Source of the DNA: Candidatus Poseidoniaceae archaeon
GTDB lineage: Archaea; Thermoplasmatota; Poseidoniia; Poseidoniales; Poseidoniaceae
DNA: 64,000 bases
Direction: 5' to 3'
NCBI GenBank assembly: GCA_965659685.1
Contig: CBFHXB010000011.1
Coordinates: forward strand, 8,595-72,594
The position numbers and the translations under genes were made by a program. Under the pieces are notes generated by a model. It was not told where the DNA came from, searched no databases, and was given only the letters and a program-made list of their open reading frames with translations. Below are positions 2,658-41,693 of the stretch, piece after piece. Positions within the stretch are counted from its first letter, which is position 1, and every line of letters begins with the position of its first letter.

Positions 2658-2703
2658 GGTTCGGCAGAATCGCCGCTCCTATTTGTCGCTGTGGGAGGAC
2701 GCC

Positions 2704-3210: not shown

Positions 3211-3284
3211 GCTCTTGCCGGCGCGTAGCGTGCTATGACCGTTGCCATGAGAGGGTCCAAGAATCCGGTCCATCTGGGCCGTGC

Positions 3285-3887
3285 ATGGCCATGTGGTGCG
3301 CGATTCGGACCTATGCAGCACACGCGGACGAACTAGGCAACGCCCGCCCCACCCGCCCGATTTTCTTCACCAAACCCGCCGGTTGCCTGTCCACGAGCAA
3401 CATCGTCGACGTGACCGGGCACGACGGTGAAATCCATCACGAGGTCGAGCTTGTGCTCAAATTGTGTGAAGGGGGGGAAGTCACCCACGTGGCTGTGGGT
3501 CTGGACCTCACCGACCGTGCCGCCCAACAAGAGGCTCGACCGGAGGGCCTTCCATGGGCCCGCGGAAAGGCGTTCCGAGGGGCTGCTCGCCTGGGAGGCT
3601 TTGTGCCTTGGACGCAGAGCGTGGAGGGTTTGTCCACCTCAGGGCTGCGCCTTGAATTGCGGATCGACGGTGAAGTCCGTCAATCTGCGGCCATCGCGTC
3701 GATGTCGATTCCACCGTCCCGTCTGCTGGACGATTTGCAGGACTGGGCGCCGCTGCAAGACGGCGATTTGGTGTTCACCGGAACCCCTTCGGGCGTGGGT
3801 CAATTGCACCCAGGAACCCATCTGGAGGCCGTCTTGATGGACGACAACTCGGCCGTTCTGTCCGGTTTGGACCTCCGTTGTGTTTGA
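3285..3887 (+). CDS. fumarylacetoacetate hydrolase (FAH) family protein
   Basis: 'IFFTKPAGC...EIHHEVELVLKL...VAVGLDLTDR...WARGKAF...GDLVFTGTPSGVG' is the FAH-fold signature. Confidence 0.75.
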   Translation: MAMWCAIRTYAAHADELGNARPTRPIFFTKPAGCLSTSNIVDVTGHDGEIHHEVELVLKLCEGGEVTHVAVGLDLTDRAAQQEARPEGLPWARGKAFRGAARLGGFVPWTQSVEGLSTSGLRLELRIDGEVRQSAAIASMSIPPSRLLDDLQDWAPLQDGDLVFTGTPSGVGQLHPGTHLEAVLMDDNSAVLSGLDLRCV

Positions 3888-3940
3888 GGGTGGGCTTCAT
3901 ATACGCCGCGTCGGTCGGCAGCCTGCGAGGTGAACCTTTC

Positions 3941-4321
3941 ATGGCACAATGGCACGGCATCTCTCGACGCAAGACCAGCGGCGGTCGCCGAGTTCAGGCT
4001 CGCGGCAAGCGCAAGACGGAAATCTCCAGCGAGAAGCAATTCGCGCTCGTTGGAGAACCCAAGCGCAAGATCTACCGCAAGGCCGGTGGCAACACCATGG
4101 TTCGTGTCATGGCCGAGAACCGAGTGGCCATCGCCGATCCTGCAAAAGGCACCACCAAGATGGGGACCATCATGAGCGTCGTCGAAAACGAATCCGACCC
4201 GAACTACGTTCGTCGGAACATCCTCGTGAAGGGCGCCATCATCGAGACCGACAAGGGTCGCGTGCGCATCACCTCCCGACCCGGAAAGGACGGGGTCATC
4301 AACGGCGTGCTCGTCGAGTGA
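3941..4321 (+). CDS. rps8e: 30S ribosomal protein S8e
   Basis: 'MAQWHGISRRKTSGGRRVQARGKRK...DPNYVRRNILVKGAIIETDKGRVRITSRPGKDGVINGVLV' is typical S8e. The start is trimmed to ATG 3941. Confidence 0.9.
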   Translation: MAQWHGISRRKTSGGRRVQARGKRKTEISSEKQFALVGEPKRKIYRKAGGNTMVRVMAENRVAIADPAKGTTKMGTIMSVVENESDPNYVRRNILVKGAIIETDKGRVRITSRPGKDGVINGVLVE

Positions 4322-4375
4322 GGCCCCTGACCCGGGTCCACATGGACCTGAAGCACAGGAGCAAGAGGCGGGCAC

Positions 4376-4807
4376 ATGGACCATGACCCGGACCGCTTGA
4401 CGTTGTGGCCGTCGTACTTCGACGTCCGCCGCTCTCGTCGATCAGGCCGTCGTGTCAGCAAGGACGCTTCGGTGAAGAAACCGGACCTGGAAGGACTGTA
4501 CAACGCCGCCCGTGCGGTTGGCCTTCGAAAAATCAAGCGTGAAGCCAAGGCCGCTCGACCAAGCGACCCGCACGCACGGGAAGGCCGCCTCATCGTCAGC
4601 CGCTCCGGCGCAGAAGCAGACGCCGGTGCATCCTCCAAGGAGGAAATCATGCAGTTGATTGGGACCACATGGCGCGAGCAGCGAAAGAAGGAGCATGAAC
4701 AGGCCAAGAAGCCAGCCTCCCCTCGAAAACAAAGCGGCAAGTCATCGTCAGGACAGGCCAAGTCGAAGGGTCGCTCGTCGTCCCGTCGCCGGTCCTTCAA
4801 GCGGTGA
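4376..4807 (+). CDS. srp19: signal recognition particle protein SRP19 with a basic C-terminal tail
   Basis: 'LTLWPSYFDVRRSRRSGRRVSKD' is the SRP19 N-terminal signature. The C-terminal half is K/R/S-rich. Confidence 0.8.
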   Translation: MDHDPDRLTLWPSYFDVRRSRRSGRRVSKDASVKKPDLEGLYNAARAVGLRKIKREAKAARPSDPHAREGRLIVSRSGAEADAGASSKEEIMQLIGTTWREQRKKEHEQAKKPASPRKQSGKSSSGQAKSKGRSSSRRRSFKR

Positions 4808-4834
4808 GGGACGGCATCCCGAAACCCTGCTCCA

Positions 4835-6028
4835 ATGGGAACCGCTTTGAATCCCGGTGTGCCCCGTTACACCATGGCAGGGGACGGAAGCAACAGCATC
4901 AACGTCGTTAACACGCTCTTTTTGGTGCTCACGCCAATCGCTTCAATCGTTGGGTTGTGGTGGCATGCCACACAATTCGGCGTGACGTGGGTCGAGCCCA
5001 TCCTGTTCGTGATCTGGTACTTCGCCTGCGGTCTGAGCATCACGGTCGGATACCATCGCTTGTTCAGCCACCGAAGCCACGAAGCATCGTGGCCCCTGCG
5101 CTTGTTCTACGCCCTCTTTGGCGCAGGCGCCTTCGAAAACAGCGCCCTGAACTGGTGCGCTGACCACCGCATCCACCACCGCCACACGGACAAGCCAGAG
5201 GATCCCTATTCCGCCACCCGTGGCTTCTGGTGGAGCCACATCCTCTGGGTGATGATCGACGAGGGTGGCGAGCGCGTGCACGACCTCTCCCAAGTCAAGG
5301 ACTTGCAGGAAGACCCCATCCTCCGCTTCCAACACCGCTTCTACCTGGTCCTCGCCGTGGGCGTGGGGATGTTCCTCCCCGCCCTCATCGGCGGCATGAT
5401 CGGTGGCGTGGGGGCTGCCGTCGGCGGATTCGTCTGGGCCGGCCTTGCTCGTACCGTCTTCACGCACCACGGGACCTTCCTCATCAACTCCGCAGCCCAC
5501 ATCTGGGGCACGCAACCCTACGGTGATGCCAACAGCAGCAAGGACTCACCTGTCCTTGCCTTCCTCACCTTCGGGGAGGGGTACCACAACTTCCACCACA
5601 CCTTCCAAGCAGACTACCGCAACGGGCACCGCTGGTACCATTTTGATCCGTCCAAGTGGTGGATTGGTTTCTTCGCGTTCATCGGTCTAAAGCGTGGCCT
5701 CAAGTCCACACCGGACTGGCACATCGAGGACAAGCGTCGACAAGCGAGCTTCGACAATGCCGCAACCATCGCCGCGACCAAAGATTCGCGCGACCTCACG
5801 GTCCTTCAGGATCGCATGAAGACCGCTCGCACGAACTTCAAGGCCCAAAGCCGTGCCTTGGACAAGTTGCTCGTCGAACGTCGCGCAGCCCGCAAGGAGC
5901 GACAAGCCGCACGGCGTGCCGAACTCGAGGAAGCCATCGCAAAAATGCGCGACGACATCGCGTCGATCCGTGCCGAGTTTGCGCTCATCATGAGCGACTT
6001 GACCACGGCAAAGCCCACAGCGGCGTGA
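4835..6028 (+). CDS. membrane acyl-CoA/acyl-lipid Delta9-type fatty-acid desaturase with a C-terminal coiled-coil tail
   Basis: It has the three histidine boxes HRLFSH, HRIHHRH and HNFHHTF, plus N-terminal TM helices. ATG 4874 is an alternative start. The last ~90 aa are R/A/E-rich and helical. Confidence 0.85.
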   Translation: MGTALNPGVPRYTMAGDGSNSINVVNTLFLVLTPIASIVGLWWHATQFGVTWVEPILFVIWYFACGLSITVGYHRLFSHRSHEASWPLRLFYALFGAGAFENSALNWCADHRIHHRHTDKPEDPYSATRGFWWSHILWVMIDEGGERVHDLSQVKDLQEDPILRFQHRFYLVLAVGVGMFLPALIGGMIGGVGAAVGGFVWAGLARTVFTHHGTFLINSAAHIWGTQPYGDANSSKDSPVLAFLTFGEGYHNFHHTFQADYRNGHRWYHFDPSKWWIGFFAFIGLKRGLKSTPDWHIEDKRRQASFDNAATIAATKDSRDLTVLQDRMKTARTNFKAQSRALDKLLVERRAARKERQAARRAELEEAIAKMRDDIASIRAEFALIMSDLTTAKPTAA

Positions 6029-20254: not shown

Positions 20255-20338
20255 GACGGAGTTCCCGAGCGGTCAAAGGGGGTGGACTCAAGATCCTCTG
20301 CTAAGGCTTCGCAGGTTCGAATCCTGCCTCCGTCACCA
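20255..20338 (+). tRNA. tRNA-Leu (anticodon CAA), type II with long variable arm, CCA encoded
   Basis: I folded it by hand. The acceptor is GACGGAG/CTCCGTC. The anticodon stem is GTGGA/TCCTC with one U-U mismatch, and the loop is CTCAAGA. The T arm is GCAGG-TTCGAAT-CCTGC, followed by discriminator A and CCA. Confidence 0.8.
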
Positions 20339-20441
20339 CACTCTTCCATCATGCATCGCAGGATTCCACACCGAGGTCAAGGAACCCCTCGAGGGTTCGC
20401 AGGTCAGAACCAGCCCATCTGGGGCGGTGTTGGAAGGAAAG

Positions 20442-20525
20442 TGCGGGGAGCAGGATTCGAACCTGCGAACCGTTGAGGACTGCGACCTGAACGCAGCGCC
20501 GTTGACCAAGCTTGGCGATCCCCGC
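20442..20525 (-). tRNA. tRNA-Leu (anticodon CAG), type II, no encoded CCA
   Basis: The reverse complement folds cleanly. The acceptor is GCGGGGA/TCCCCGC and the D arm is GCC...GGC. The anticodon arm is CTGCG-TTCAGGT-CGCAG, there is a long variable arm, and the T arm is GCAGG-TTCGAAT-CCTGC. Confidence 0.9.
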
Positions 20526-24592: not shown

Positions 24593-27112
24593 ATGGTTGA
24601 ATCGAGGTCAACTGCTGGCGGGCATGACCGTCGCAGCCTCTCTGCCTTGCGCGGACAATTCACCCGAGCCCACAGCACCAGCGCGGAGCAAGAGGGTCAC
24701 GTCAGTGCCCGCTACCGCGAGGAGGAGCGGCTTCGGGGCGAAGTGCGGCGTGACCGGCGGATCCGTCATCAGGAACTTCGCGAGCGCATCCTTGCCCAAC
24801 AAGGCAACTTGGCCATGCGGTACGAACTCGAACGCGAGCGCACGCTGCAGCAGGTCGAGCGTGAGATGCGTGAGGCGATGGAGACTGAGCTGGCCGAAGA
24901 AGGCCGGGAAGCCATCGCCCGCGAGGAAAGCCGCCTTCGAGACGAGCATTTGATGCGGCTCGAGCGTGAAATGGCGGTGCTGCGGCAACGCTACGAGGTC
25001 GAGACCGACCGCCGCATGGAAGAGGAAAAGGCGCGCATTGAGCACGACCTTCGCCAACAACTCGAGCAAGACCACGAGCATCGCTTGGACGTCGCCAGGC
25101 AACGCCTCCAACTCGAGCAAAATCAACGCCTTCACCGTCGCATTCGTGTGCTTGAGGAAGAGATCGCCCAAGAGATGGAATCCCGCTATCAAGCGCTGGA
25201 ATCCTTGGAAATCGACCGTCTCAAGGACGAGCAGGATGCAGCCCTTGCCGAGCGAGAGGACCAACTGCGTCATGGCATCCGCACCCGCCTCGAGCAGCAG
25301 GTACGTCAGCGCCTTCACCACCGGGAGGCTGCGCTACGGGCTGAATACGCGCGCCGAAGTCAACGCTTGGAAGCCGACCTTGGCGCAGAGATCCAACAGG
25401 AACTCGAGGTCCGTCTCCGACAAGACACGGAAGACCTTGAGCAGCGCATGCGCGAGGACGTGGAGTTGGCCATCGCCCGTCGTCGTGACGAACTGAGGCA
25501 AGAAGTCGAACAGCAACTTGAACAACGCTTTGCCGAGCGTCTTTCCGACCGAAAGGCCAGGCTACGGGAGCGCTTCGACCTCAGTTATGGCAAGGCCATC
25601 GACGAGGTTGAGCACGCCCTCCAAGCCCAGATCGAGGAGGAACTCGAAGCCAGCACGACCGAGGACTTCGAACGCTACAGAGAGGCGCGTGAATCCGAGA
25701 TTCAGAACCGCCTTGCCCGCTTCCGGTACGAGCGCGAGGCCCAACTCCGAGAGGAGTTGGAAGCCAAGCACGCAACGAAGCGTGAGGAATGGACGGAGCG
25801 GCTTGAACTTGAATTCCAAAGCCGTGAGGCGGCTGCCCGCAAGGCCATCATGTCCGAGGTTGACGCGAGCCTCCGCAACGAGCGATTGGCTTGGGACACC
25901 GACCTTGACCTGTTGAAGGAAGAGACCGTCCTCGAACTTGAGCTGGACATGGAAGAGCGTCTCAACGTCTTCCGCGAGCGCAAGTTGGACGAAGTCGCCA
26001 CCCAACTGGAGCGTCAACTCGACAAGCGTGAGGAAATCATGCGGAACAAGGCCCTCATCGACGTGCGCAGGAAGGAAGCACGCATTCGCGCCGAAATCGA
26101 GGCACAGCTTGGTTTGAAGCGGGCGGAAATCCGCGATCGCATCTCTGGTCTGTCAAAGAAGATGGACGAATTCAAGACCATGGCCGAGGAACGAATGCGC
26201 GAGAGCATCACCTCGCAAATCGAGGGTGAAATCGCCACCGACGAGGCCACCCTCGCCGAACGTGAGGCCGAGATGCGTCGGCTTGAGAGCACCGATCAAC
26301 GCCTCGACAAGCGGCAACAGTGGCTCGCTTCGATCTCCGGACAAGGAGGGCTAGGTCCATCGGCCCCGGCCGATGCAGCTTCCTTGGGTGCTCGCCCAGA
26401 TTCGTTGGGCGCAGCTGCAGGGCGCTCCCTCCGTGGGCCGATGGCGCAAGCGGCTCAGGCTCAACAACCGCGCATGGGCCTCTCTGGCATGCGTGCTCCA
26501 ACGTCCTCAGCCCGTTCCTTGGCGCCTTCAGCCCCCACACCCGTGGTCAAGGCCGTCAAGCAGGTCAAGACGCCTGTGGTGGCCCCAGCGGCTCCGATTC
26601 AGTCGCCTGTGACCTCTTTGGAACCTGAAGCCGGGTTGACGTCCACGGTGGTCCCGGTTGAACCCGCCATGGAGGTGGCAGAGCCCGCCACCGACGAGGC
26701 CCCCGTCGGCATCGAATCCACCGTCAGCGTGGAGGACAACGCGCTCCCCACCACGGTTGAGGCTCCAGAACCGACGATCGATTCCGTCCTTGAGGAAGCC
26801 CACGACGACGTGGCAGAAGCCGAGATGGGAGCCATGCTCGAAGACGAGGGAGCGGTGGCCACCGAGGCCCCAATGCCCACTCCCGTTGCGGCCCCGGTGA
26901 AGGCCGGTGGAGACGTGTTTGGCGATCGCCCCATCCTCCAACCGGTTCGCACCCTGCATGCCTTGGGTGCTCCAAGGGCCACGGCCCAACTCAAGCCGGC
27001 CATGCCGGTCTTGTCCCCTGCGGGCGACACCCCCGTGCTCCAGCCGGTTACCACGATGACACCGCGTCAAATCGCCCCTGTTGAGCGACTCGAACCGTTC
27101 GATGAGGATTGA
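24593..27112 (+). CDS. long coiled-coil protein with a P/A/V/T-rich disordered tail
   Basis: About 560 aa of almost uninterrupted E/R/L/Q heptad-like sequence is followed by ~250 aa of low-complexity P/A/V/T sequence. There is no TM helix and no NTPase motif. Confidence 0.65.
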   Translation: MVESRSTAGGHDRRSLSALRGQFTRAHSTSAEQEGHVSARYREEERLRGEVRRDRRIRHQELRERILAQQGNLAMRYELERERTLQQVEREMREAMETELAEEGREAIAREESRLRDEHLMRLEREMAVLRQRYEVETDRRMEEEKARIEHDLRQQLEQDHEHRLDVARQRLQLEQNQRLHRRIRVLEEEIAQEMESRYQALESLEIDRLKDEQDAALAEREDQLRHGIRTRLEQQVRQRLHHREAALRAEYARRSQRLEADLGAEIQQELEVRLRQDTEDLEQRMREDVELAIARRRDELRQEVEQQLEQRFAERLSDRKARLRERFDLSYGKAIDEVEHALQAQIEEELEASTTEDFERYREARESEIQNRLARFRYEREAQLREELEAKHATKREEWTERLELEFQSREAAARKAIMSEVDASLRNERLAWDTDLDLLKEETVLELELDMEERLNVFRERKLDEVATQLERQLDKREEIMRNKALIDVRRKEARIRAEIEAQLGLKRAEIRDRISGLSKKMDEFKTMAEERMRESITSQIEGEIATDEATLAEREAEMRRLESTDQRLDKRQQWLASISGQGGLGPSAPADAASLGARPDSLGAAAGRSLRGPMAQAAQAQQPRMGLSGMRAPTSSARSLAPSAPTPVVKAVKQVKTPVVAPAAPIQSPVTSLEPEAGLTSTVVPVEPAMEVAEPATDEAPVGIESTVSVEDNALPTTVEAPEPTIDSVLEEAHDDVAEAEMGAMLEDEGAVATEAPMPTPVAAPVKAGGDVFGDRPILQPVRTLHALGAPRATAQLKPAMPVLSPAGDTPVLQPVTTMTPRQIAPVERLEPFDED

Positions 27113-27156
27113 GCGAAGGAACGAGCCATTCAAGGCCAAGAGGTCCATGTGGCGTC

Positions 27157-29559
27157 ATGCGAGCACTGCGCGCAGCCCTGCTCTCCGTCCTGTTCGTCCT
27201 CGGGACTTTTGCTGCTTCAGGCTCAGCATCGCTCATTGATGGGGGCGAAATCCATCAAAGCCCAGAGCCCGTGGTGATGTGGTATTCCTCAGGTGGCGAC
27301 GAGGTGTTGACCCTCGACGGCGAGGGTGTGTTCATGGCCCTCCGATGGAACGGAGGCGCCTACCAAGTCACCCGTGCGGTCGACCTGAACGTGACGGTCA
27401 ACGCCGCACGCCTGGACGTTGATGCAGGGTTGTTGGCGGTTGGACATTCCAGTGGAGCGCTTATCCTCGACCTTGACACCGATCAAATCACGCAGGACAT
27501 CAGCCTACCAGACCCTGTCGACGACCTGGATTGGGACGACGACGGTGACCTGTGGGTGGTGCACAACGGCGGGTTGCGGCAAGCCGTCGAGCACGAAACA
27601 GGCGGCCCATCAGGGGTGCGCACCAGCGTGATGAGCGCAGGAATTTGTTCCTTCGTCATCCTTGAGGACGGACGTGTCCTGACCGCGGGCTTCGACAGCC
27701 GACTCCGGGTCCACACCGACGAAGGAATCCAAGATCAAGACCTGACGGGTCTGGGTGGGGCTCCGACACAACTCATCGAAGACGGTGAATTCGTTTGGGC
27801 TGGCCTTTCGAACGGGCGTGTGCTTCGATGGAACTCAAGCACATGGTCGTCCGAAGAAGTCGTCACCGCATCTGCACCGATCACGTCCCTGTCCGTTGAT
27901 GGCGACGGAGGCATGTGGGTGGGGCATCAAAACGGCATCGTCGTTCACCTTGACGCCTCCCTTGTGTCCACCCAAGAGCACCAAGCCACGGGCAAATCCA
28001 TCTCTGTGATTCCCAAGAACGACGGCACCGTTCACCTCGTGAGCGTGACGTCGTCAAACACCCGCGTTCGTCTTCTGGACCTTGACGCGGACGGTGACGG
28101 TGTGGCCGATGCCGCCGATGCATTCCCAGACGACGCGGCACAAACGGAGGACCGTGACGGGGACGGATACGGCGACAACACGGCCCTCGCGGGAGGCGAT
28201 CAGTTCCCTGACGACCCGACCCAGTGGGCCGACCGTGACGGGGACGGTTACGGTGACGAGGCCGAAGGCACCGATGGCGACATGTTCCCTGACGACCCCA
28301 ACCAATGGGAAGATGCCGACGGTGACGGCGTTGGCGACAACCAAGCCGATCCTAACGGTGACGTGTTCCCTGAAGATCCAACCCAGTGGGCCGACCGTGA
28401 CCGGGACGGCTTCGGTGATGCACCAAACGGTGTGCGCCCGGACGAGTGTCCGGACGCCAACGGGTTCTCGTCGAACGACCGTCGCGGTTGCCCCGACAAA
28501 GACCTCGATGGGTGGTCGGACCCCGATGCAAATTGGTTGGTCGCCCAAGGTGCGGACGCCTTCCCGAACGACAAGACGCAGTGGGCGGATTTCGACGGCG
28601 ACGGATACGGTGACCATCCCGACGGCACCACACCGGACGCCTGCATCACGTCTGGAGGAACTTCCGTTCGAGCCTTGGTCCCTGAACTGGGGGCCACCAC
28701 CCGATACATCAGCGAGGCGCATTACGGCTGCCCGGACCTCGACGGCGATGGATGGGCCGATGCCTCCGAGGTCGGTGAGGGTATGGCCGAGAACCCCACC
28801 GAGCACATGGACCTCGACGGTGATGGCGTGGGCGCCAACACCGACTACAACGATACCAACGCCTTGGTGATCGACATCGAGGACCACTGCTTGCTCAGTT
28901 TCGACGACCTGAGGGAGGTTTGCCTGGGATGGAGGAGCACCGAGTACCAAGATTACCTGGCCACCCTGAACGAGAGCGAGCGCAATCGAATGTCCTACAA
29001 TTACTGGAACCAGAGCCTTGCCGGCTCCTCGTCCAGTGGCGGCCTTGACATGGCCTTGGTGGCCGAGGTCGGCTTGGTTGCCGGGGGCATCTTTGTGGTC
29101 TGTTCCGTGGTGATTTTGCTCCTTGGTGCCATGACCAAACGGGTCAAGCGACCGTCCGAGGAGAAGCAATTCGACTCCTTTGGTTTCGATGAATCGGCCA
29201 ACGAGGAAGCCTTGAGTGGACAAGCCGGCCTCTCTGCCACCGGTGGTTTGGTCGACGACCTGTGGGACGACGAAGACGCGCCGGAACCCATGGGCGCTGA
29301 GGAGGCACTCGACGACGCCGAAGAAGCGCCGATAATCACCTCAATGGTGGAAGACGTCGTCCTCCAATCCTCAACACCGGCGGAGCCGTCCAGCGAGCCT
29401 GAAGCACCCGCCGCGATGGAATCCGTGGAGGAGGCAGCGGGCGATGAGCCGGAGCGTGAAGCGCCCCCTGTGCCCGAAGAAGGCTTGCCGAACGGCTGGA
29501 CGATGGATCAATGGAAATGGTACGGGCATCAATGGCTCGAACAGAACAAAGGGTCCTGA
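27157..29559 (+). CDS. secreted beta-propeller-like protein with thrombospondin-type-3-like Ca-binding repeats, one TM helix and an acidic cytoplasmic tail
   Basis: The signal peptide is MRALRAALLSVLFVLGTFAASGSAS. The N-terminal ~300 aa look like propeller blades (e.g. 'GRVLRWNSSTW', 'GMWVGHQNGIVVHLD'). More than 8 repeats of 'D.DGDG.GD...D.FP.DP.QW.D' follow, then the TM helix 'LVAGGIFVVCSVVILLLGAM' and a D/E-rich tail. Confidence 0.7.
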   Translation: MRALRAALLSVLFVLGTFAASGSASLIDGGEIHQSPEPVVMWYSSGGDEVLTLDGEGVFMALRWNGGAYQVTRAVDLNVTVNAARLDVDAGLLAVGHSSGALILDLDTDQITQDISLPDPVDDLDWDDDGDLWVVHNGGLRQAVEHETGGPSGVRTSVMSAGICSFVILEDGRVLTAGFDSRLRVHTDEGIQDQDLTGLGGAPTQLIEDGEFVWAGLSNGRVLRWNSSTWSSEEVVTASAPITSLSVDGDGGMWVGHQNGIVVHLDASLVSTQEHQATGKSISVIPKNDGTVHLVSVTSSNTRVRLLDLDADGDGVADAADAFPDDAAQTEDRDGDGYGDNTALAGGDQFPDDPTQWADRDGDGYGDEAEGTDGDMFPDDPNQWEDADGDGVGDNQADPNGDVFPEDPTQWADRDRDGFGDAPNGVRPDECPDANGFSSNDRRGCPDKDLDGWSDPDANWLVAQGADAFPNDKTQWADFDGDGYGDHPDGTTPDACITSGGTSVRALVPELGATTRYISEAHYGCPDLDGDGWADASEVGEGMAENPTEHMDLDGDGVGANTDYNDTNALVIDIEDHCLLSFDDLREVCLGWRSTEYQDYLATLNESERNRMSYNYWNQSLAGSSSSGGLDMALVAEVGLVAGGIFVVCSVVILLLGAMTKRVKRPSEEKQFDSFGFDESANEEALSGQAGLSATGGLVDDLWDDEDAPEPMGAEEALDDAEEAPIITSMVEDVVLQSSTPAEPSSEPEAPAAMESVEEAAGDEPEREAPPVPEEGLPNGWTMDQWKWYGHQWLEQNKGS
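28078..28870 (+). repeat. intragenic tandem array of DxDGDGxxD calcium-binding-type repeats
   Basis: The repeats are visible in the DNA. For example, 'acccagtgggccgaccgtgac(g/c)gggacgg(t/c)t(a/t)cggtga' occurs at ~28221 and ~28381. They encode the TSP3-like motif. Confidence 0.7.
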
Positions 29560-29814
29560 TCACGACCAGCGCACGGGAAGGTCTGCGCGAAGTTTGGCCA
29601 GTTCCTCTCCAGAATAGAGCGGTCGACCTCCTTCTTTTACCGTGCTCTGAATGAGCCACAGCACGCCGTTCCAGGCGCTCCGTGTCGCGGTGATTTCGAC
29701 GTCTCCCCGGGCGGCAACGCCCATGAGTTCTGCTTCAACGGTGGTGGGGTCGAAGAGGGCTTTCACAAGGTGGCGGGTCTCAAAGGCCACCTGAGGTGGC
29801 TTCCAACTCATCAT
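29560..29814 (-). CDS. small hypothetical protein, last gene of the ParA-RHH cassette
   Basis: 84 aa from ATG 29814, or 87 aa from GTG 29823, which overlaps the RHH gene stop. High third-position GC. I recognise no family, and RelE/ParE signatures are not seen. Confidence 0.4.
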   Translation of the reverse strand: MMSWKPPQVAFETRHLVKALFDPTTVEAELMGVAARGDVEITATRSAWNGVLWLIQSTVKEGGRPLYSGEELAKLRADLPVRWS

Positions 29815-29819
29815 GGCGA

Positions 29820-30062
29820 TCACACCCTGAATGGAGCGAGGTTCAACCGCTCGACGAGGTGGTCCACGTCGACGTCCGCCGTTGCCTTCGCACGCTCGCG
29901 AAGCAACTCAAGGCTGCCGTCCATGCGCGCCATGCGTTGGTGGCGAATGAGGTCAAGCAGGACCTCATTCACGCTCTTGTATCCGCCAAGCGAGCGCAAC
30001 GTGTTCAATTGTCTTCGTACTTCGTAGCTCACGCTTACCGAGGTCATTCCCTTCGCTGTCAT
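29820..30062 (-). CDS. ribbon-helix-helix (RHH/CopG/Arc-type) DNA-binding protein
   Basis: 'TSVSVSYEVRRQLNTLRSLGGYKSVNEVLLDLIRHQ' matches the beta-strand, helix, helix pattern of RHH proteins. It is 80 aa and lies directly downstream of ParA copy 2. Confidence 0.55.
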   Translation of the reverse strand: MTAKGMTSVSVSYEVRRQLNTLRSLGGYKSVNEVLLDLIRHQRMARMDGSLELLRERAKATADVDVDHLVERLNLAPFRV

Positions 30063-30152
30063 CGTGCATCCCGTTGGTTGGTGCCCTCTATGCGCTACTT
30101 AAGGCGCGCGAGGCGGAATGCCCCTTGAGGGCGATTTCAGGACCCCTTGCGC

Positions 30153-31115
30153 TCAGCGGCGACCCTGCGCCTCAAGGGAGACCCTTGAGGGCTCACGGAC
30201 CCCGAATTCTCGACGCATGTCCTGCACGCGGCGGTGGAATTCGCGTGCCAAGGTCCAGTATTCCAGGGAGCCTGCTCCGGCTCCGGAGGACGTGGGTTTG
30301 TTGAGCAAGACGGTCGGTGCTCCGGACCACGGTGCCTCAGCCACGTTCACCAGACGTCGAATCGACGTGCTGAACAATTTGTTCGGGATGCTGAGGGCGA
30401 CTTGGTCGCACACGTGACGCGACAGTTTGGAGCGGGCGTCGACCATGGTCATCACGACGCCGAAAATCTTCAGGTTCCGGTTGATCCTTCGCTGGATCAT
30501 CTTGACCGAGTTCATCAGCATGCTGAATCCTTCCAAGGAGTAGTATTCCGCCTGAACGGGGACCATCACCCAATTTGCTGCGCTCAGGGCGTTGATGGAC
30601 AACAGTCCGAGGGAGGGGGGTGTGTCGATGACGATGTAGTCGAAGTGGTCGATGATGGGCGCCAACGCTTCCTTGAGGCGAGTCTCACGCCCGATCTTGT
30701 GGGAGAGTTCGATCTCCGCTCCGGAGAGGTGGATGTCGCTGGGAAGCAACCAGAGGTTCTCTGTGGTCAGGGTGGCGGGTGGACGGCCCTTCTCGTTGCG
30801 CAGCATCCATGCGTTCCGCATGGAGGCCGTCAGGTCCTCAGGACCGATCAGGTACTCGTCCATCAAGGGCAATTCCTCGCCGAGATCGTTGGTCAAGAGG
30901 TCGTACGCCGTCTTTTTGACGCGCTTCTTCTCGATGCCAAAGGACGTCGCGCAGTTCCCTTGCGGATCCAAATCGATGAGCAACACCTTCGCAGGAGGTA
31001 GCCCCATCTTCTGGTGACCGCGGGCCAGCGCCGCTGCAAGGTTGACCGCCGTGGTGGTCTTCGCGCAACCGCCCTTTTGGTTGGCGACCGCGATGACCAT
31101 CTTGTACGGGTCCAT
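30153..31115 (-). CDS. parA: ParA/Soj-family ATPase (copy 2)
   Basis: It has the deviant Walker A 'NQKGGCAKTTT', plus 'LIDLDPQGNCATSFG' and 'VIDTPPSLG'. A ~40-aa insertion follows the Walker A region, and the C-terminal tail is basic. Confidence 0.85.
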   Translation of the reverse strand: MDPYKMVIAVANQKGGCAKTTTAVNLAAALARGHQKMGLPPAKVLLIDLDPQGNCATSFGIEKKRVKKTAYDLLTNDLGEELPLMDEYLIGPEDLTASMRNAWMLRNEKGRPPATLTTENLWLLPSDIHLSGAEIELSHKIGRETRLKEALAPIIDHFDYIVIDTPPSLGLLSINALSAANWVMVPVQAEYYSLEGFSMLMNSVKMIQRRINRNLKIFGVVMTMVDARSKLSRHVCDQVALSIPNKLFSTSIRRLVNVAEAPWSGAPTVLLNKPTSSGAGAGSLEYWTLAREFHRRVQDMRREFGVREPSRVSLEAQGRR

Positions 31116-31176
31116 GCCTTCACTCCCGAGACGTTGAACCTCGGCTCTCCCCTATCAACCCCGGCCTCAATCCGCA

Positions 31177-32160
31177 TCAAACGGGCTGAACCACGGGCAC
31201 AGGAACTTCGGACAGGATCTTGCGAACGATGTGCCCGCCGGTGATGCCTCGAATCTTGGCTTCGGGCTTCATCACGATCCTGTGGCTGATGACCTGCATG
31301 GCGACGCTCTTGATGTCGTCAGGCACCACGTAGGTGCGACCGGCGATGGCCGCTGAGGCACGGCCGGTCTTGAACAGGGCCTGAGAGGCACGGGGCGATG
31401 CGCCGTTGACCACGCGGTGGTCTTCACGGGTGCGCTGAACGATTTCAACGATGTACGCAAGGATGGAGGGGTCCACGTGAACGCCTTCCAGGGCACGTTG
31501 CATGGCGACGACCTTCTTGGGTTCAGTCACCTGATCGACTTCGTGTTCGTCCTTCCCTCGCATCTTTCGACGAGCCAAAATGGCCTTCTCTTCTGCACGG
31601 TCGGGGTATCCCATGCTCATTTTCATCAGGAAACGGTCCATCTGTGCCTCAGGGAGCGGGTAGGTTCCCTCTTGTTCGATGGGGTTCTGGGTGGCCAACA
31701 CGACGAAGGGGGCAGGAAGCTTGTGGGTGATGCCCTCAATGGTCACTTGCTTCTCTTCCATCGCCTCAAGCAGGGCCGCCTGGGTCTTGGGCGGAGCACG
31801 GTTGATCTCATCAGCGAGGAGGATGTTGGAAAACAAGGGGCCAGCGCGGAGCTTGAAGTCACCCGACTTTTGGTCGTACATGTAGGTTCCCATGATGTCG
31901 GAGGGAAGCAGGTCAGGGGTGAACTGAACACGCTTGAACTTGCAGCCAAGGGCACGTGCGAAGGTGTTCGCGAGCAGGGTCTTGGCCAACCCGGGGAAGT
32001 CCTCAAGAAGCATGTTGCCGTTTGAGAGGATTCCAACGGTGACACGACGGAGGTTCTCCTCTTTTCCGATGATGACCTTTCCAACCTCGCTCATGAGGTC
32101 GTTTGCAATCTGGGACACGGTGCTGATGATTTTCGCGGTGTTCGCGTCTGCTGCTTGCAT
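31177..32160 (-). CDS. MoxR-family AAA+ ATPase
   Basis: 'LLEDFPGLAKTLLANTFARAL', 'ILLADEINRAPPKTQAALLEAMEEKQVT' and 'FVVLATQNPIEQEGTYPLPEAQMDRF' are the AAA_3/MoxR signature. Confidence 0.9.
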   Translation of the reverse strand: MQAADANTAKIISTVSQIANDLMSEVGKVIIGKEENLRRVTVGILSNGNMLLEDFPGLAKTLLANTFARALGCKFKRVQFTPDLLPSDIMGTYMYDQKSGDFKLRAGPLFSNILLADEINRAPPKTQAALLEAMEEKQVTIEGITHKLPAPFVVLATQNPIEQEGTYPLPEAQMDRFLMKMSMGYPDRAEEKAILARRKMRGKDEHEVDQVTEPKKVVAMQRALEGVHVDPSILAYIVEIVQRTREDHRVVNGASPRASQALFKTGRASAAIAGRTYVVPDDIKSVAMQVISHRIVMKPEAKIRGITGGHIVRKILSEVPVPVVQPV

Positions 32161-36588: not shown

Positions 36589-37182
36589 TCACTCAAATTC
36601 AGAGGCGTCCATTTCGTTGAGCGTGATGTAGGACGGCAACTGCATGGCCCGTTCAAAGGTGCGGCCAAGGACCACTTCATCGAGCCGATCACGGGTACGT
36701 GCGATGGCCGTGAGGGGAAGCCGGACGGTCTCTCCGAGCTCGAAACGCTGCTGGACGCCGACGCGAAGGGTGACGATGAATCCCTTGTAGGTGCGCTTGA
36801 CTTTCAGGAGGCCGGTGATGATGCCGACTTCGTTGCCCTGGTTGTCCAAGACCGCACGGTCGAGCATTTCGTCGGGTGCGTAGAGCTGTTCGTCGATGCG
36901 CACGGTGTTGCGCCAGCGACGCTGGAGTTCGCGCATGGACTTGGAGAGGCGTACGGAGCCGTCGTCGTTGATGCTGTGAACAAGCTCCTTGGGAAGGGGT
37001 GCAAATTCAGCAGGCTTGCGCATGAATTCGCCCGCCACGTCCGTTTCGACCAGAAGGCGAACGGATCGCACACGTGATTCGTTGGGGTGGTGACGTTCCC
37101 CGATGATGGTGCCCACTTTGGTGTCCTTGACGTACACGTCGCGTTGCATCAATTCCTGGATGTGGTAGTCTGTTGGTGCCAT
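36589..37182 (-). CDS. PRC-barrel-domain protein
   Basis: Two PRC-barrel-like segments are present ('VYVKDTKVGTIIGERHH...' and 'LDRAVLDNQGNEVGIITGLLKVKRTYKGFIVTL'). The family call is from memory of the fold's sequence pattern. Confidence 0.5.
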   Translation of the reverse strand: MAPTDYHIQELMQRDVYVKDTKVGTIIGERHHPNESRVRSVRLLVETDVAGEFMRKPAEFAPLPKELVHSINDDGSVRLSKSMRELQRRWRNTVRIDEQLYAPDEMLDRAVLDNQGNEVGIITGLLKVKRTYKGFIVTLRVGVQQRFELGETVRLPLTAIARTRDRLDEVVLGRTFERAMQLPSYITLNEMDASEFE

Positions 37183-37268: not shown

Positions 37269-37282
37269 AGTTAGTGACGAAG

Positions 37283-37299
37283 AATCAATTGGAAATCGC
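37283..37299 (+). repeat. CAATTGGAA element copy (AATCAATTGGAAATCGC)
   Basis: It has the exact CAATTGGAA core with the WWCGC flank shared with the copies at 37492, 39464 and 44151(-). Confidence 0.65.
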
Positions 37300-37366
37300 C
37301 GATAATCGGCATGTCGCATAATCCATTTCCATAAGTAAATCGCGGCATCTTTCATTTCTGAACGAG

Positions 37367-37381
37367 GTGAAATTCCAATTG
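37367..37381 (-). repeat. CAATTGGAA element copy (minus strand CAATTGGAATTTCAC)
   Basis: The core is exact. The flank GGAATTTCAC resembles the 53.7-kb copy (TAATTGGAATTCAC). Confidence 0.6.
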
Positions 37382-37487
37382 GGCTTTCCTCATTCTTCAC
37401 CACGCGTAGGCGGGCCCGTCCGATCGGTGCCGGGGTGGGGTCGCCTGGCCGGTAGATTTCGACCTAATAATCGATAGTTTAAGCGAA

Positions 37488-37505
37488 TTTTCAATTGGAA
37501 AACGG
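37488..37505 (+). repeat. CAATTGGAA element copy (TTTTCAATTGGAAAACGG)
   Basis: The core is exact, with the flank GGAAAACG as in the ubiD copy. It lies ~70 nt upstream of ATG 37564. Confidence 0.65.
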
Positions 37506-37563
37506 CATATTTCGTTTTTCGTCATGTCGGCGAACTCATAGAGGCGGGCGAAGGTGGACGGGC

Positions 37564-38253
37564 ATGGCCGCCGTGGACCTGCGTGGACTTCATCCGCGCT
37601 TTTCCGCGACCGTGATGCTCCATGCAGCCCGCAAAGGCCACCCTGTTGCTGGCGTAACGGAGGCCGCCAGGCAACTTGCCCGGGTGCGTGACCCACTGGG
37701 TTTGTCTTCGCTCATTGAGGAAGAGGATGCCACTGCACGTTTGTCCGGTCCAGGGGACGGGTCCCGTTTCGAAGTGGAGCGAGACGGGCGCGTGCTGCAG
37801 GTGTGCCCCATCGACGTGATTCCTACGCTCACGGCAAGTTTCTGGCCCGATCTCTTGCTTGATGCTGATGCGAGGGCCGGTTGGTGGGTGGCCGAGCATG
37901 ACCTTGTCGAGGCTCTGTTGAGCCTCGCAGCACACCCGGTGCCAGAAGGACGCCTCGTCCTCAGCGGTCGGAGGCGTTGGCAGGCCACTGAGTTGATGCA
38001 CGAGGCCGCCCTCCTGCACCGACGCTGGGAGCAAGGGCAAGTCGGTGCCTTCTCGGTCGAGGTGTTGGCTGAACCTCAGCGTCCACCTGTCCGGGTTGAA
38101 CCCGTTGAATTGGACGATCAGGAGCCAGATCTCGGACCTTTGCACCGTCTCTTGTCTGAGCACCGTTCAGAGGGTTGGCGCCCCCAGATGACGGTGCGTG
38201 AAGCCTTGATGCACCATCTGGCCCTGGTAGAGGGAGCACTCAACCGCGGGTGA
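37564..38253 (+). CDS. hypothetical protein
   Basis: 229 aa from ATG 37564, with high third-position GC. I recognise no motif. The 3' end overlaps the dys stop by 14 nt (convergent genes). Confidence 0.4.
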   Translation: MAAVDLRGLHPRFSATVMLHAARKGHPVAGVTEAARQLARVRDPLGLSSLIEEEDATARLSGPGDGSRFEVERDGRVLQVCPIDVIPTLTASFWPDLLLDADARAGWWVAEHDLVEALLSLAAHPVPEGRLVLSGRRRWQATELMHEAALLHRRWEQGQVGAFSVEVLAEPQRPPVRVEPVELDDQEPDLGPLHRLLSEHRSEGWRPQMTVREALMHHLALVEGALNRG

Positions 38254-39272: not shown

Positions 39273-41693
39273 TCAATCAATCCCTGCGCCATCGAGCCGG
39301 TCACGGATCGTCATCAACCGGTCACGGAGCCGAGCGGCCTCTTCGAAATCAAGGGCCCGTGCAGCGTCTTCCATCGCTGCTTTGAATTCAGCGGCCAGGT
39401 CGACCAAGGCTTCCTTTGAGGTGGGAAAATCTTCGTCATGTTCCAATTGAGAAATTGAATGTTCAATTGGAATACGCTGGTCACTGTCCGCCGTGTTGTT
39501 GCTTGGCAAAAAGGCCGCAGCAGGGCCGTCTGCACGCCCACCACGCTTCGCCACCAAACGTTTCCCACCACGGGAAGTGGTGGTGCCTTCGAGGAGGCCC
39601 TCTGATTCTTGGCCCATTTGTGGAAGGGCCTTGACGATGGTGCGGGGTACAATGCCACGCCGTTCGTTGTCCTCGTGTTGCCGCTGGCGACGTTCCAAGG
39701 TTTGGCGGATGGCTCCGGTCATGGCAGGCGAAACGCTGTCGGCGTAGAGAAGGACGGATCCGTTGGCGTTTCGCGCAGCACGCCCGATGGTTTGCAAGAG
39801 CGATCGCTCGTTGCGAAGGAAGCCCTGACGGTCCGCGTCGAAAATCGCCACCAAGCTGACCTCAGGAATGTCCAATCCCTCTCGGAGCAGGTTGATGCCG
39901 ACAATGACGTCAATGAGGCCCAAGCGCAACGCGTTGATGATCTCGGTGCGTTCGATGGTGTCGATTTCCGAGTGGAGGTGGTGCGCCTTCACGCCCATTC
40001 GGCTGAGGTATGCGGCGACCTCTTCGGCGAATTTGATCGTCAGGACGGTCACCAAGGTCCGCTCCCCACGGTCGATTCTGGCGTTGATTTCTGAGAGCAA
40101 GTCGGCCACTTGCCCTTCAGTGGGTCGAACTTCAATGCCCGGATCCAACAAGCCCGTCGGTCGAATTTCCATGCGTGGCAAGTGGTCAATCGTTTGCAGC
40201 ATTTCGTACATCGACGGCGAGCCCTGGATTTTCTTGGCCACGTCCGCGGGCCCAGCGCCGCCCCTGGAAGCGACGTGAAGCAGGCCTTCAGGCACCGGTT
40301 GACCGGTCACCTCACACAGGTGCCGCAATTCGCGCTCGCCCGGTGTTGCAGAGACGTAGACCATTTGCGGGACAAGGCCTTGGAATTCTGGAATTTTCAG
40401 CGGCCGGTTGTCCGCGGCCGAAGGCAATCGGAAGCCGTGCTCAATGAGGTTCTCTTTGCGTGCCCTGTCCCCGTGGTACATGCCTCCTACTTGCGGGAGG
40501 GTCACGTGCGACTCGTCCATGATGACCAGGAAACGGGTGGGGTCGCCATGGAATTGACGCGCGCAGGCCGCAAAGAAGTCGAGCAAACAATACGGTCGTT
40601 CGCCTGCTTCACGGCCGTCGAAATGCCGTGAATAATTCTCGATGGCCAAACAGTGTCCGACTTCCCGCAGCATCTCAAGGTCGTACTCTGTGCGTTGTTC
40701 CAAGCGATGGCGCTTCACCTGCTCTTTCGTTCCGTCGAAGTACCGCAGCCGGTCGTTCAGTTCGCTTTCAATCCGCTCAAGCGCGATTTCGAACCGCTCC
40801 GGGCTGGTCATGAAGAACTCCTTCGGGTGAATCCAAGCCTCTTCCAAGGCGTCGAGCACCTCCCAACTGACCGGATCGCACACGGAGACGGCGATGACGC
40901 CATCGAAGTCGAATCGAATGCGAAGTGGATCGTCGCGGCTCGGCATCCATACGTCAAGCACTTCGCCACGCAAGCGGGCTTGGCCGCGTTCGAGGTCGGT
41001 GTTGGTGCGGGCGTACTGCAGCCCGACCAAAGCCCGCATCAAGTCCTGCGGTTCGATGGCCTGGCCCACGTGCACCCTGAGGTGGTGCTCCAGGAAGGTT
41101 TCGGGCGGATTGAGGCCGTAAATGCACGACACGGAGGAGACGATGACACAATCTGGGCGTGAGACCAAACTTGCGACTGCGGAGAAGCGCTCCTGTTCGA
41201 TTCGCTCGTTGATGGAGAGCTCCTTGTCGATGTACAGGTCTCGCTTGGGCAGGTAGGCTTCGGGTTGGTAGTAGTCGTAGTGTGAAACGAAGTATTCAAC
41301 GGCGTTTTCAGGGAAATAGCCGGCAATCTCGTGGTGCAATTGCCGAGCAAGCGTCTTGTTGTGCGAGATGATCAACGTTGGGAGGTTGAGCCGTTCGATG
41401 ACGTTGGCCATGGCGAAGGTCTTGCCTGAGCCGGTCACGCCAAGCAGCACACAGCGCTCTTGCCCTCCCTCGATTTGCTGCACGAGTTGTTCGATTGCTT
41501 CGGGTTGATCGCCCGCCGGTGCATGTTCGGAATGAAGGCGAAAGCGGCTCACGTCAGGACTCAGGTGTTCCAACGAAGCGCCTTCGAGCGCTCGTGAGAG
41601 GTCAAAGGGGTCCCGTTCCTGAAGGTCCACCTCGCCCACGTCGAGGTTGGCACGGGCCTCGAAGGACCCGTCGTCGTCCCATTCGTCGACCAC
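39273..41693 (-). CDS. uvrB: excinuclease ABC subunit B (UvrB), extended
   Basis: 'GVTGSGKT', 'DESH', 'QTIGRAARN' and the C-terminal UVR motif 'LDFEEAARLRDRL' are present. It starts at a GTG. The 806 aa includes a ~45-aa acidic N-terminal extension and a longer pre-UVR linker. Confidence 0.92.
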   Translation of the reverse strand: MVDEWDDDGSFEARANLDVGEVDLQERDPFDLSRALEGASLEHLSPDVSRFRLHSEHAPAGDQPEAIEQLVQQIEGGQERCVLLGVTGSGKTFAMANVIERLNLPTLIISHNKTLARQLHHEIAGYFPENAVEYFVSHYDYYQPEAYLPKRDLYIDKELSINERIEQERFSAVASLVSRPDCVIVSSVSCIYGLNPPETFLEHHLRVHVGQAIEPQDLMRALVGLQYARTNTDLERGQARLRGEVLDVWMPSRDDPLRIRFDFDGVIAVSVCDPVSWEVLDALEEAWIHPKEFFMTSPERFEIALERIESELNDRLRYFDGTKEQVKRHRLEQRTEYDLEMLREVGHCLAIENYSRHFDGREAGERPYCLLDFFAACARQFHGDPTRFLVIMDESHVTLPQVGGMYHGDRARKENLIEHGFRLPSAADNRPLKIPEFQGLVPQMVYVSATPGERELRHLCEVTGQPVPEGLLHVASRGGAGPADVAKKIQGSPSMYEMLQTIDHLPRMEIRPTGLLDPGIEVRPTEGQVADLLSEINARIDRGERTLVTVLTIKFAEEVAAYLSRMGVKAHHLHSEIDTIERTEIINALRLGLIDVIVGINLLREGLDIPEVSLVAIFDADRQGFLRNERSLLQTIGRAARNANGSVLLYADSVSPAMTGAIRQTLERRQRQHEDNERRGIVPRTIVKALPQMGQESEGLLEGTTTSRGGKRLVAKRGGRADGPAAAFLPSNNTADSDQRIPIEHSISQLEHDEDFPTSKEALVDLAAEFKAAMEDAARALDFEEAARLRDRLMTIRDRLDGAGID
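39441..39477. repeat. dual-core CAATTG element inside uvrB (TTCCAATTGAGAAATTGAATGTTCAATTGGAATACGC)
   Basis: There are two CAATTG cores at 39444 and 39464, 20 bp apart. The outer arms TTCCAATTGA / TCAATTGGAA are inverted repeats. This AT-rich patch lies in GC-rich coding DNA, in the linker before the UVR domain. Confidence 0.7.

Follow-up and report, generated by a model that had tools for sequence, protein, structure and literature searches.

Which partner does the second ParA-family ATPase of a Candidatus Poseidoniaceae archaeon work with? The question is raised by a 64-kb stretch of contig CBFHXB010000011.1 (64,000 nucleotides, hereafter the window), in which the gene for this ATPase, ParA2, is followed on the minus strand by two small genes and preceded by a gene for a MoxR-type AAA+ ATPase. 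The first of the small genes codes for a probable ribbon-helix-helix (RHH) protein of 80 amino acids (aa), and the second for a protein of 84 aa whose modelled structure resembles a PIN domain. We find that ParA2 and the two small genes make up a syntenic trio kept in every relative examined, and tentatively suggest that the small pair, once of a VapBC-like toxin-antitoxin (TA) kind, may have become the partner of ParA2. The genes and spacers in question are as follows.

31177-32160, minus strand: MoxR-type AAA+ ATPase, 327 aa (Pfam AAA_3, 2.3e-65; AAA_lid_2, 2e-20)
31116-31176, minus strand: MoxR-ParA2 spacer, 61 bp, with a conserved promoter-like block
30153-31115, minus strand: ParA2, predicted Soj-type Walker ATPase, 320 aa (Pfam AAA_31, 1.2e-52; CbiA, 4.5e-21)
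30063-30152, minus strand: ParA2-RHH spacer, 90 bp, with a conserved BRE/TATA-like block (BRE, B recognition element)
29820-30062, minus strand: probable RHH DNA-binding protein, 80 aa (sequence signature, AF2/Foldseek, sub-threshold Pfam matches)
29560-29814, minus strand: predicted PIN-like protein, 84 aa from an ATG at 29814; an alternative GTG at 29823 (29560-29823) gives 87 aa

A first-pass annotation of this DNA had described four co-directional open reading frames (ORFs), spacers of 61 and 90 bp, and a last gene whose start overlaps or abuts the RHH stop codon; all of this was verified, the coordinates included. From the GTG, the small gene overlaps the RHH stop by 4 nt, and from the ATG it starts 5 nt past it. 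Its homologues begin at the ATG, as MMSWKPP... Upstream of MoxR, aIF5B and ndk follow on the same minus strand. Pfam and NCBIfam contain no match to either small protein, and with PHROGs and PADLOC added to the search neither rises above threshold.

ParA2 and the two small genes form a conserved trio

The RHH profile was run over GTDB with each species represented by one genome; the gene was present in 213 of these genomes, and 80 of them were kept. Together with divergent lineages these species-representative genomes gave 91 loci, whose gene order was established by tblastn with the window proteins. The order MoxR, ParA, RHH, small gene was seen in 91/91 loci wherever the contig was long enough, with a single lineage, L093, showing an insertion after MoxR. 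All but one of the 80 genomes kept are labelled Poseidoniales (Marine Group II) or more broadly archaea, and the taxon-named matches of both small proteins are Candidatus Poseidoniales/Poseidoniaceae, or Euryarchaeota only. The exception is a metagenome-assembled genome labelled Salinimicrobium (locus L011, CAXRAI010000058.1), whose RHH protein is identical to that of the window and whose flanking proteins are 94-99% identical; this contig is probably mis-binned.

Identity to the window proteins differs greatly along the locus: 84-90% for MoxR, 58-83% for ParA2, 45-74% for the RHH protein and 27-57% for the small protein. A word-based search returned merely 13 close relatives of the latter; a divergent version nevertheless follows every RHH gene. 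When 1.84 billion representative proteins were searched with a hidden Markov model, 36 members of the small-protein family were obtained (at 50% clustering), and the small gene was located just downstream of ParA2-RHH in 12/12 sampled loci with a long enough contig, representing about eight distinct lineages. The trio occupies one syntenic position in the 91 loci and is single-copy in nearly all genomes sampled, and no sampled lineage showed the RHH-small pair apart from ParA2, rearranged flanks included. Median ratios of non-synonymous to synonymous substitution rates (dN/dS) are low in both small genes (80-aa gene, 0.045; 84-aa gene, 0.077). Both small genes are real and under strong purifying selection.

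The proposal that ParA, a small RHH-type protein and a third small gene form a real unit was thus borne out by strict synteny in the relatives examined; this synteny, on which the proposal had been made to depend beforehand, was kept in every one of them. The larger neighbourhood is also collinear across the order, running from PRPP synthetase, L7Ae, S28e, L24e, ndk and aIF5B through MoxR, ParA, RHH and the small gene to two convergent genes for a beta-propeller and a coiled-coil protein. It is the rearranged loci that delimit the unit. In L093 three unrelated genes (867, 396 and 208 aa) stand between MoxR and ParA2, with ParA2-RHH-small still contiguous; in L089 a Macro-domain gene follows the small gene; and L090 and L040-type loci also differ downstream. 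Since the trio stays intact in all of these, we take ParA2-RHH-small to be the conserved unit and MoxR to be its neighbour. The L093 locus (1005-5643) belongs to a high-GC lineage (GC 0.69), and all three inserted genes are without a Pfam match; the 867-aa protein is rich in Asn-x-Ser/Thr and is probably secreted or membrane-bound.

Pairwise evolutionary distances within the trio are highly correlated (ParA-RHH, r = 0.955; ParA-small, 0.916; RHH-small, 0.918), and pairs with MoxR less so (0.79-0.83). The controls of this mirror-tree comparison were poor, aIF5B being bimodal and the propeller protein saturated, and the correlations may lend the trio weak support. As a separate observation, the adjacent aIF5B is much less conserved (37-70%) than MoxR, which keeps 84-90% identity throughout the order; the aIF5B identities fall into two groups of ~66-70% and 37-39%. 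This suggests a divergent paralogue, an intein or a replacement of aIF5B in some lineages.

MoxR is probably a neighbour, and the genes have separate promoters

Almost all of 85 distinct sequences of the spacer between ParA2 and the RHH gene contain a block, TTCGCGnnGGTTAAGTA, at one and the same distance. In the window this is CGCGCGCC-TTAAGTA; its TATA-like heptamer occupies 30096-30102, which puts it ~38 nt upstream of the RHH ATG, and a GGGAT Shine-Dalgarno-like element comes after it. From this sequence pattern the block in 30063-30152 is the predicted promoter of the RHH-small pair itself, whose two genes are 4-6 nt apart in most lineages. ParA2 is preceded by a block of its own (GGTTGATAGGGGAG in the window and TTGCATTGAAAGGGGAG in most relatives, as seen in 72 distinct loci right-aligned on the ParA2 start codon), followed by a GGAG(G/T)G Shine-Dalgarno-like element. 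MoxR has yet another conserved block, CACATTCATATATGG.

Each of these three promoter-like blocks is different and each lies at the usual archaeal distance. An operator shared among the MoxR, ParA2 and RHH promoters was rejected, the conserved blocks being all different. TTAAGTA occurs only once in the window and was considered as a special site; it was likewise rejected, as both its sequence and its distance agree with the TATA-like consensus of the local promoters, and other window genes have related promoter-like sequences at the same distance upstream.

MoxR stands next to ParA2 in all sampled lineages except L093, and it had earlier been counted as part of the cassette. One could envisage a four-gene machine in which the MoxR chaperone remodels or loads a ParA-driven positioning complex, possibly one that serves the beta-propeller membrane protein and the coiled-coil protein. 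Besides the near-universal adjacency, the 84-90% conservation of MoxR and the synteny of the convergent propeller and coiled-coil genes would agree with such a machine. However, L093 tolerates three genes between MoxR and an intact trio, MoxR has its own conserved promoter, and its divergence is less correlated with that of the trio. AAA_3 and AAA_lid_2 are both present in the protein, yet the VWA or DUF58 gene expected of MoxR + VWA systems was found neither among the neighbours identified (ndk, aIF5B, beta-propeller) nor in the sampled loci with called genes; that MoxR lacks a visible partner of this kind had already been noted in the first-pass annotation. No description of a MoxR-ParA system was found in the literature searched. 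We consider the four-gene machine improbable, and inclusion of MoxR in the cassette is not supported: MoxR is probably a conserved neighbour rather than a component of the unit, judging from gene order and promoters.

ParA2 is predicted to be a full-length Soj-type ATPase

The best solved-structure matches of ParA2, over its whole length, are 8ray (3.5e-50) and Thermus thermophilus Soj (1wcv, 4.3e-42), whereas Sulfolobus SegA (7DUT) is matched at 3e-15 and in residues 134-210 only. The PDB codes of SegA (7DUT) and SegB (7DUV, 7DV2) are those given in PMC8682754. The deviant Walker A motif NQKGGCAKTT, which has the KGGxxK[ST] form with the signature lysine, is invariant among the orthologues. 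R228, in the sequence DARSKL, is the counterpart of R189 in the DxRxxL motif of Bacillus subtilis Soj and is kept in 57/59 orthologues. Hester and Lutkenhaus reportedly found in 2007 that Soj R189 is required for non-specific DNA binding. Compared with Soj, ParA2 has an insertion of ~40 aa (about residues 79-120) and a short C-terminal extension. Taken together, ParA2 is by its sequence a full-length Soj-type Walker ATPase.

A first ParA gene, 40% identical to ParA2, is located near the start of the window (~916-1713, plus strand). It is followed by an overlapping 140-aa ORF (1683-2105, plus strand), which has no Pfam match and whose N-terminus, RGLGRGLDHLI, resembles in sequence the ParB motif that interacts with ParA. 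The genome therefore seems to carry two ParA systems. Because ParA1 is already followed by a ParB-like ORF, ParA2 would need a partner of its own, and apart from the two small proteins it has no other candidate partner nearby. The ParA1 sequence TMHAPTLL stands where ParA2 has TMVDARSKL, leaving ParA1 without an Arg equivalent to Soj R189.

The 80-aa protein is a likely RHH protein with an antitoxin-like layout

The predicted elements of the 80-aa protein are a beta-strand at T7-S12 (TSVSVS), helix A from Y13 to ~G27, a turn with the pattern G-x-x-S30, and helix B. S30 does not vary across the order, and residues 6-20 (MTSVSVSYE.RRQLN) hardly do. The N-terminus, MT(A/G)(K/E)GM, leads directly into the strand, some homologues starting at M6, and a conserved C-terminal extension of ~33 aa ends in RLNLAPF(K/R)V. 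The family comprises 178 homologous clusters, those with a named source being Poseidoniales or unclassified archaea, and some members are labelled 'predicted CopG family antitoxin' by JGI.

The AlphaFold2 (AF2) model of the monomer has a moderate predicted local distance difference test (pLDDT) score of 73. All of its 16 Foldseek matches in the PDB are RHH proteins (NikR, ParD/PrpA), every one at a non-significant E >2. Sub-threshold Pfam matches among family members are to RHH_1 (0.0058, 0.066) and VAPB_antitox (0.014, 0.086). An RHH fold is likely, as far as the model can tell. The short N-terminus combined with a conserved C-terminal extension corresponds in sequence to a type II antitoxin-like layout. 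The RHH profile, run against the PDB, gave no match to SegB (7DUV/7DV2), ParG or omega, SegB being absent at E up to 10; homology by sequence to SegB, ParG or omega was accordingly rejected, the profile having found nothing relevant there.

The model of the 84-aa protein resembles a truncated PIN domain

The model of the 84-aa protein is considerably better (pLDDT 92), with the topology b-a-a-b-a-b-b-a-b. Nine of its ten top Foldseek matches in the PDB are PIN domains (VapC, SMG5, Pyrococcus PINs), at probabilities up to 0.84, query-normalised TM-scores of 0.46-0.58 and E of 0.23-0.8. Pfam PIN_3 is matched by 2/20 family members (E 0.07), and two members carry the JGI label 'predicted nucleic acid-binding protein'. 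The description of this protein as belonging to no recognised family holds for Pfam and NCBIfam, but its model does resemble a PIN-like fold.

Conservation within the family speaks against an active PIN nuclease. In a set of 20 diverse members, invariance is limited to W48, N49, L72 and P80, none of them acidic; where a PIN domain has its first catalytic Asp, after strand 1, family members carry E, D, T, V, K or G. Family members are 83-88 aa long. At 84 aa the window protein has ~60% of the length of a PIN domain, the matched PIN chains being of 111-147 residues. At the N-terminus there is a conserved basic residue with a Pro after it (W-K/R-P or K-G-Q/R-x-P). Our reading of the model is that of a truncated, catalytically dead PIN-like domain.

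The first-pass annotation had set a TA module aside for want of toxin hallmarks in the small protein. This was too quick, considering the PIN-like model and the antitoxin architecture of the RHH protein. An active module of the VapBC type that merely adjoins ParA would indeed have the RHH gene first and the PIN-like gene second, tightly spaced behind a promoter of their own, and would account for the dominance of PIN domains among the Foldseek matches, for the weak VAPB_antitox and PIN_3 matches in Pfam and for the two JGI names. Against an active module stand the lack of any invariant acidic residue, the variable first catalytic position and the reduced length. Unlike mobile, patchily distributed TA systems, the pair keeps one fixed chromosomal position in the loci examined, usually in single copy and under strong purifying selection. 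The plasmid collection contains no homologue of either small protein, viral contigs contain none of the RHH protein, and nothing significant came of comparing the fold of the small protein with viral structures; a plasmid or viral origin was rejected on the grounds of these absences from plasmids and, for the RHH protein, viral contigs.

With the PIN catalytic residues absent and inheritance vertical at one locus, the pair looks TA-derived rather than an active TA. It is unlike a mobile TA module in that, in the loci examined, it is found at a single locus, is inherited vertically across the order, lacks catalytic residues and is absent from plasmids. The pair is probably not an active TA module, and an active VapBC that happens to lie beside ParA appears highly improbable.

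Candidate DNA sites at the locus

A CAATTG inside the RHH gene, together with a word shared with other parts of the window, had been put forward as a possible site. The sequence is present (TGTTCAATTG at 30002-30011), and the window has three copies of TGTTCAATT where 0.27 would be expected. It has no significance, however, and is best described as a by-product of codons: the CAATTG copy encodes the invariant Gln18-Leu19-Asn20-Thr21, the synonymous sites of these codons vary freely in other species, and CAATTG is found in 12/57 distinct codon strings. CAATTG/TGTTCAATT in the RHH gene was rejected as a binding site on account of this coding origin and the free synonymous positions.

The copy in the RHH gene is without the GGAA extension of a real motif at 37.2-39.5 kb, TCAATTGGAA (inverted, TTCCAATTGA), which has five copies in the window, at 37279-37504 and 39441-39476. 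Three of these lie in a 312-bp AT-rich intergenic region between divergent ORFs of no known family (36589-37182, minus strand, and 37495-38253, plus strand), and the other two are inside uvrB, in its 3' end, ~150 bp upstream of where the deoxyhypusine synthase gene starts. TCAATTGGAA is probably a transcription-factor site; no link between it and the RHH protein or the trio was found.

A second candidate is a set of three repeats, GCCCTCAAGGG / CCCTTGAGGGC (two direct, one inverted), extending over 30122-30192 across the ParA2 stop codon. These are peculiar to this genome, being missing even from those closest relatives that have an identical RHH protein, for which reason they were rejected as a centromere or operator. 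Replication-origin proximity of the trio was rejected as well: no Orc1/Cdc6 match was obtained among the 20 larger window ORFs scanned with Pfam, a non-exhaustive scan.

Comparison with known systems

ParA ATPases paired with an RHH centromere-binding protein include ParF/ParG of TP228, delta/omega of pSM19035 and SegAB of Sulfolobus (PMC8682754). The first-pass annotation had likened the locus to SegAB or to type Ib plasmid partition systems. In outline the likeness stands: in type Ib systems (TP228 ParF/ParG, pSM19035 delta/omega) a Walker-type ParA precedes a small RHH protein that binds DNA as a dimer, an order that the trio shares with its likely RHH protein, and SegAB (with SegC) has a ParA-like ATPase of the archaeal chromosome with a small protein behind it that binds DNA site-specifically. 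Homology to SegAB does not stand, given a ParA2 nearer to Soj and an RHH protein with no SegB match, motif or tail.

The trio departs from type Ib in several respects. It lies on the chromosome and is restricted to a single archaeal order; the apparently Soj-like ParA2 has 320 aa, whereas a type Ib ParA has roughly 200 aa; its RHH protein has no N-terminal activating tail; a predicted PIN-like third subunit is always there; and no iterated centromere was found beside the trio, nor any sequence similarity to ParG or omega. The omega protein is nevertheless of interest here, as this RHH partner of delta (ParA) in pSM19035 also heads a linked omega-epsilon-zeta TA operon (PMC3074150). It provides a partial precedent for a TA-linked RHH partner of ParA.

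SegB has been reported to have an RHH motif (PMC8682754), and its homologues are reported only from Sulfolobaceae, a few Thermococcus species and Methanobacteriales (PMC12139799). ParA2 is closer to Soj (4e-42 to 3.5e-50) than to SegA (3e-15). The SegB C-terminal signature, K/R-D/N-P-K/R-I-G/T-V/L-W-S-Y/P-P/E (PMC12139799), is missing from the RHH protein of the trio, the C-terminus of which is ...HLVERLNLAPFRV, and so is the SegA-binding N-terminal tail of ~33 residues found in SegB. A third interacting protein, SegC, is described with a thiamin-diphosphate-binding fold in the account of Lin et al. 2024 given by PMC12139799; unlike the third protein of the trio it is not PIN-like. From these sequence comparisons the pair is not a SegAB homologue.

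With VapBC the pair shares gene order, tight coupling, an own promoter, a likely N-terminal RHH with a C-terminal extension, and a second protein with a putative PIN-like fold. VapC has three or four invariant acidic residues in a domain of ~130 aa, whereas the protein of the trio has 84 aa and no conserved acidic residues; and the pair is single-locus and vertically inherited, whereas VapBC are patchy, mobile and often multicopy.

AspA-ParB-ParA of pNOB8 is an archaeal three-component plasmid partition system (PMC5393062). It differs in gene order and in being plasmid-borne, AspA being a winged-helix protein and ParB having ParB-N and CenpA-like domains, and the PDB entries of the pNOB8 proteins were matched by neither small-protein profile. 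In this system the roles of DNA binding and ParA adaptor are said to be split between two proteins (Schumacher et al., 2015), which makes it a precedent for such a division in an archaeal ParA system. Overall, the trio is not a canonical SegAB, type Ib or VapBC, since defining features of each fail. By analogy, it would work most like a ParA with an RHH partner. No paper on ParA in Poseidoniales or Marine Group II was found in the literature searched, and a system such as the trio is likewise undescribed there.

A possible split partner for ParA2

We suggest, as a plausible if tentative explanation, that a domesticated VapBC-like pair is the DNA-bound, cargo-side partner of ParA2, making up a type-Ib-like system with a split partner. 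In this scheme ParA2, the RHH protein and the PIN-like protein would be one vertically inherited functional trio on the Poseidoniales chromosome. The pair would have descended from a VapBC-type module, with the nuclease truncated and its catalytic residues lost. A dimer of the RHH protein would bind a specific DNA site through its invariant beta-ribbon, and its C-terminal extension would hold the PIN-like subunit, as VapB holds VapC. The DNA-bound heterocomplex would then be the cargo-side partner of ParA2, itself an ATP dimer on the nucleoid, and would stimulate the ParA2 ATPase, possibly via the short basic N-terminus of the small protein (M-x-x-K/R-P), so that the complex is positioned or segregated like a type Ib system whose partner is split in two polypeptides. 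A more specific version, with the RHH antitoxin as the DNA anchor and the dead, truncated PIN as the ParA-activating interface of a two-polypeptide centromere-binding complex, conserved in the Marine Group II lineages sampled and existing beside the separate Soj/ParB-like pair, is rather doubtful. DNA binding by the RHH protein, its contact with the small protein, the contact with ParA2 and the identity of the cargo are all points that we infer.

A number of observations weigh against a partner role. There is no conserved repeat array near the locus that would act as a centromere, and three other lineages have no common repeats. The flexible tail at the N-terminus of ParG, omega and SegB is the ATPase-stimulating element (PMC8682754), and the RHH protein has no such tail, merely 5-6 residues preceding the strand. 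ParA2 and the RHH-small pair have separate conserved promoters with no obvious common operator. A PIN-like gene behind an RHH gene is the textbook arrangement of an autoregulated TA module or regulator pair, for which no ParA is needed. As the whole neighbourhood is collinear across the order, adjacency alone is weak evidence of a functional link, and a contact of ParA2 with either small protein, be it physical or functional, is something we infer. The fold assignments, furthermore, draw on models whose Foldseek E-values are non-significant, both for the likely RHH fold and for the putative PIN fold.

Several of these points are equally expected if the RHH/mini-PIN pair is an independent, TA-derived regulatory module acting in the cell cycle or in stress, which lies beside ParA2 for historical or co-regulatory reasons; ParA2 would then work with another partner or with none, and the pair could be compared to aCcr1-3, the small RHH regulators of Sulfolobales. 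Such a module would explain the strongly conserved BRE/TATA promoter of the pair, the spacing of 4-6 nt typical of a tightly coupled bicistron, the antitoxin or repressor architecture without an N-terminal tail and the lack of centromere-like repeats at the locus. Collinearity of the region across the order makes adjacency to ParA2 indecisive, and RHH proteins are known regulators of the archaeal cell cycle (PMC9976892). It is harder to see, however, why an independent regulator would never be found apart from ParA2 in the sampled lineages, even with both flanks rearranged, why the small-protein family would be confined to the ParA2-RHH context, and why ParA2 would be left without another candidate partner nearby. 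The divergence of ParA and RHH is also more tightly correlated than that of either with MoxR. An independent regulator is a possible but on the whole unlikely explanation.

In the surface ocean few archaea are as abundant as Poseidoniales (Marine Group II), which are ecologically dominant and uncultured. To our knowledge, nothing is known of their chromosome organisation and segregation or of their cell biology. The trio of a predicted Soj-type ParA, a likely RHH protein and a putative dead mini-PIN, conserved across the order, is a candidate for study in vitro. Should the pair be the partner of ParA2, the trio would join SegAB and the AspA-ParB-ParA of pNOB8 as a third kind of ParA system in archaea, and be an example of a TA module recruited into cell organisation. 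It would also indicate that an RHH partner can do without the N-terminal activating tail regarded as typical of type Ib. Otherwise the pair would still be a widely conserved pair of TA-derived regulators.

Other features of the window

Two large genes on the plus strand (24593-29559), with ORFs overlapping by 4 nt, are convergent on the trio and syntenic across the order. The first codes for an 839-aa Glu/Arg-rich coiled-coil protein without a Pfam match. The second, which converges on the cluster with zero spacer, codes for an 816-aa protein; its beta-propeller matches are sub-threshold, and it also has a transmembrane segment, an acidic tail and repeats that are rich in Asp and Ca-binding-like (DADGDG...). 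At 20255-20525, two tRNA-Leu genes with the anticodons CAA and CAG, only the first of them above the Rfam gathering threshold, face each other ~100 bp apart.

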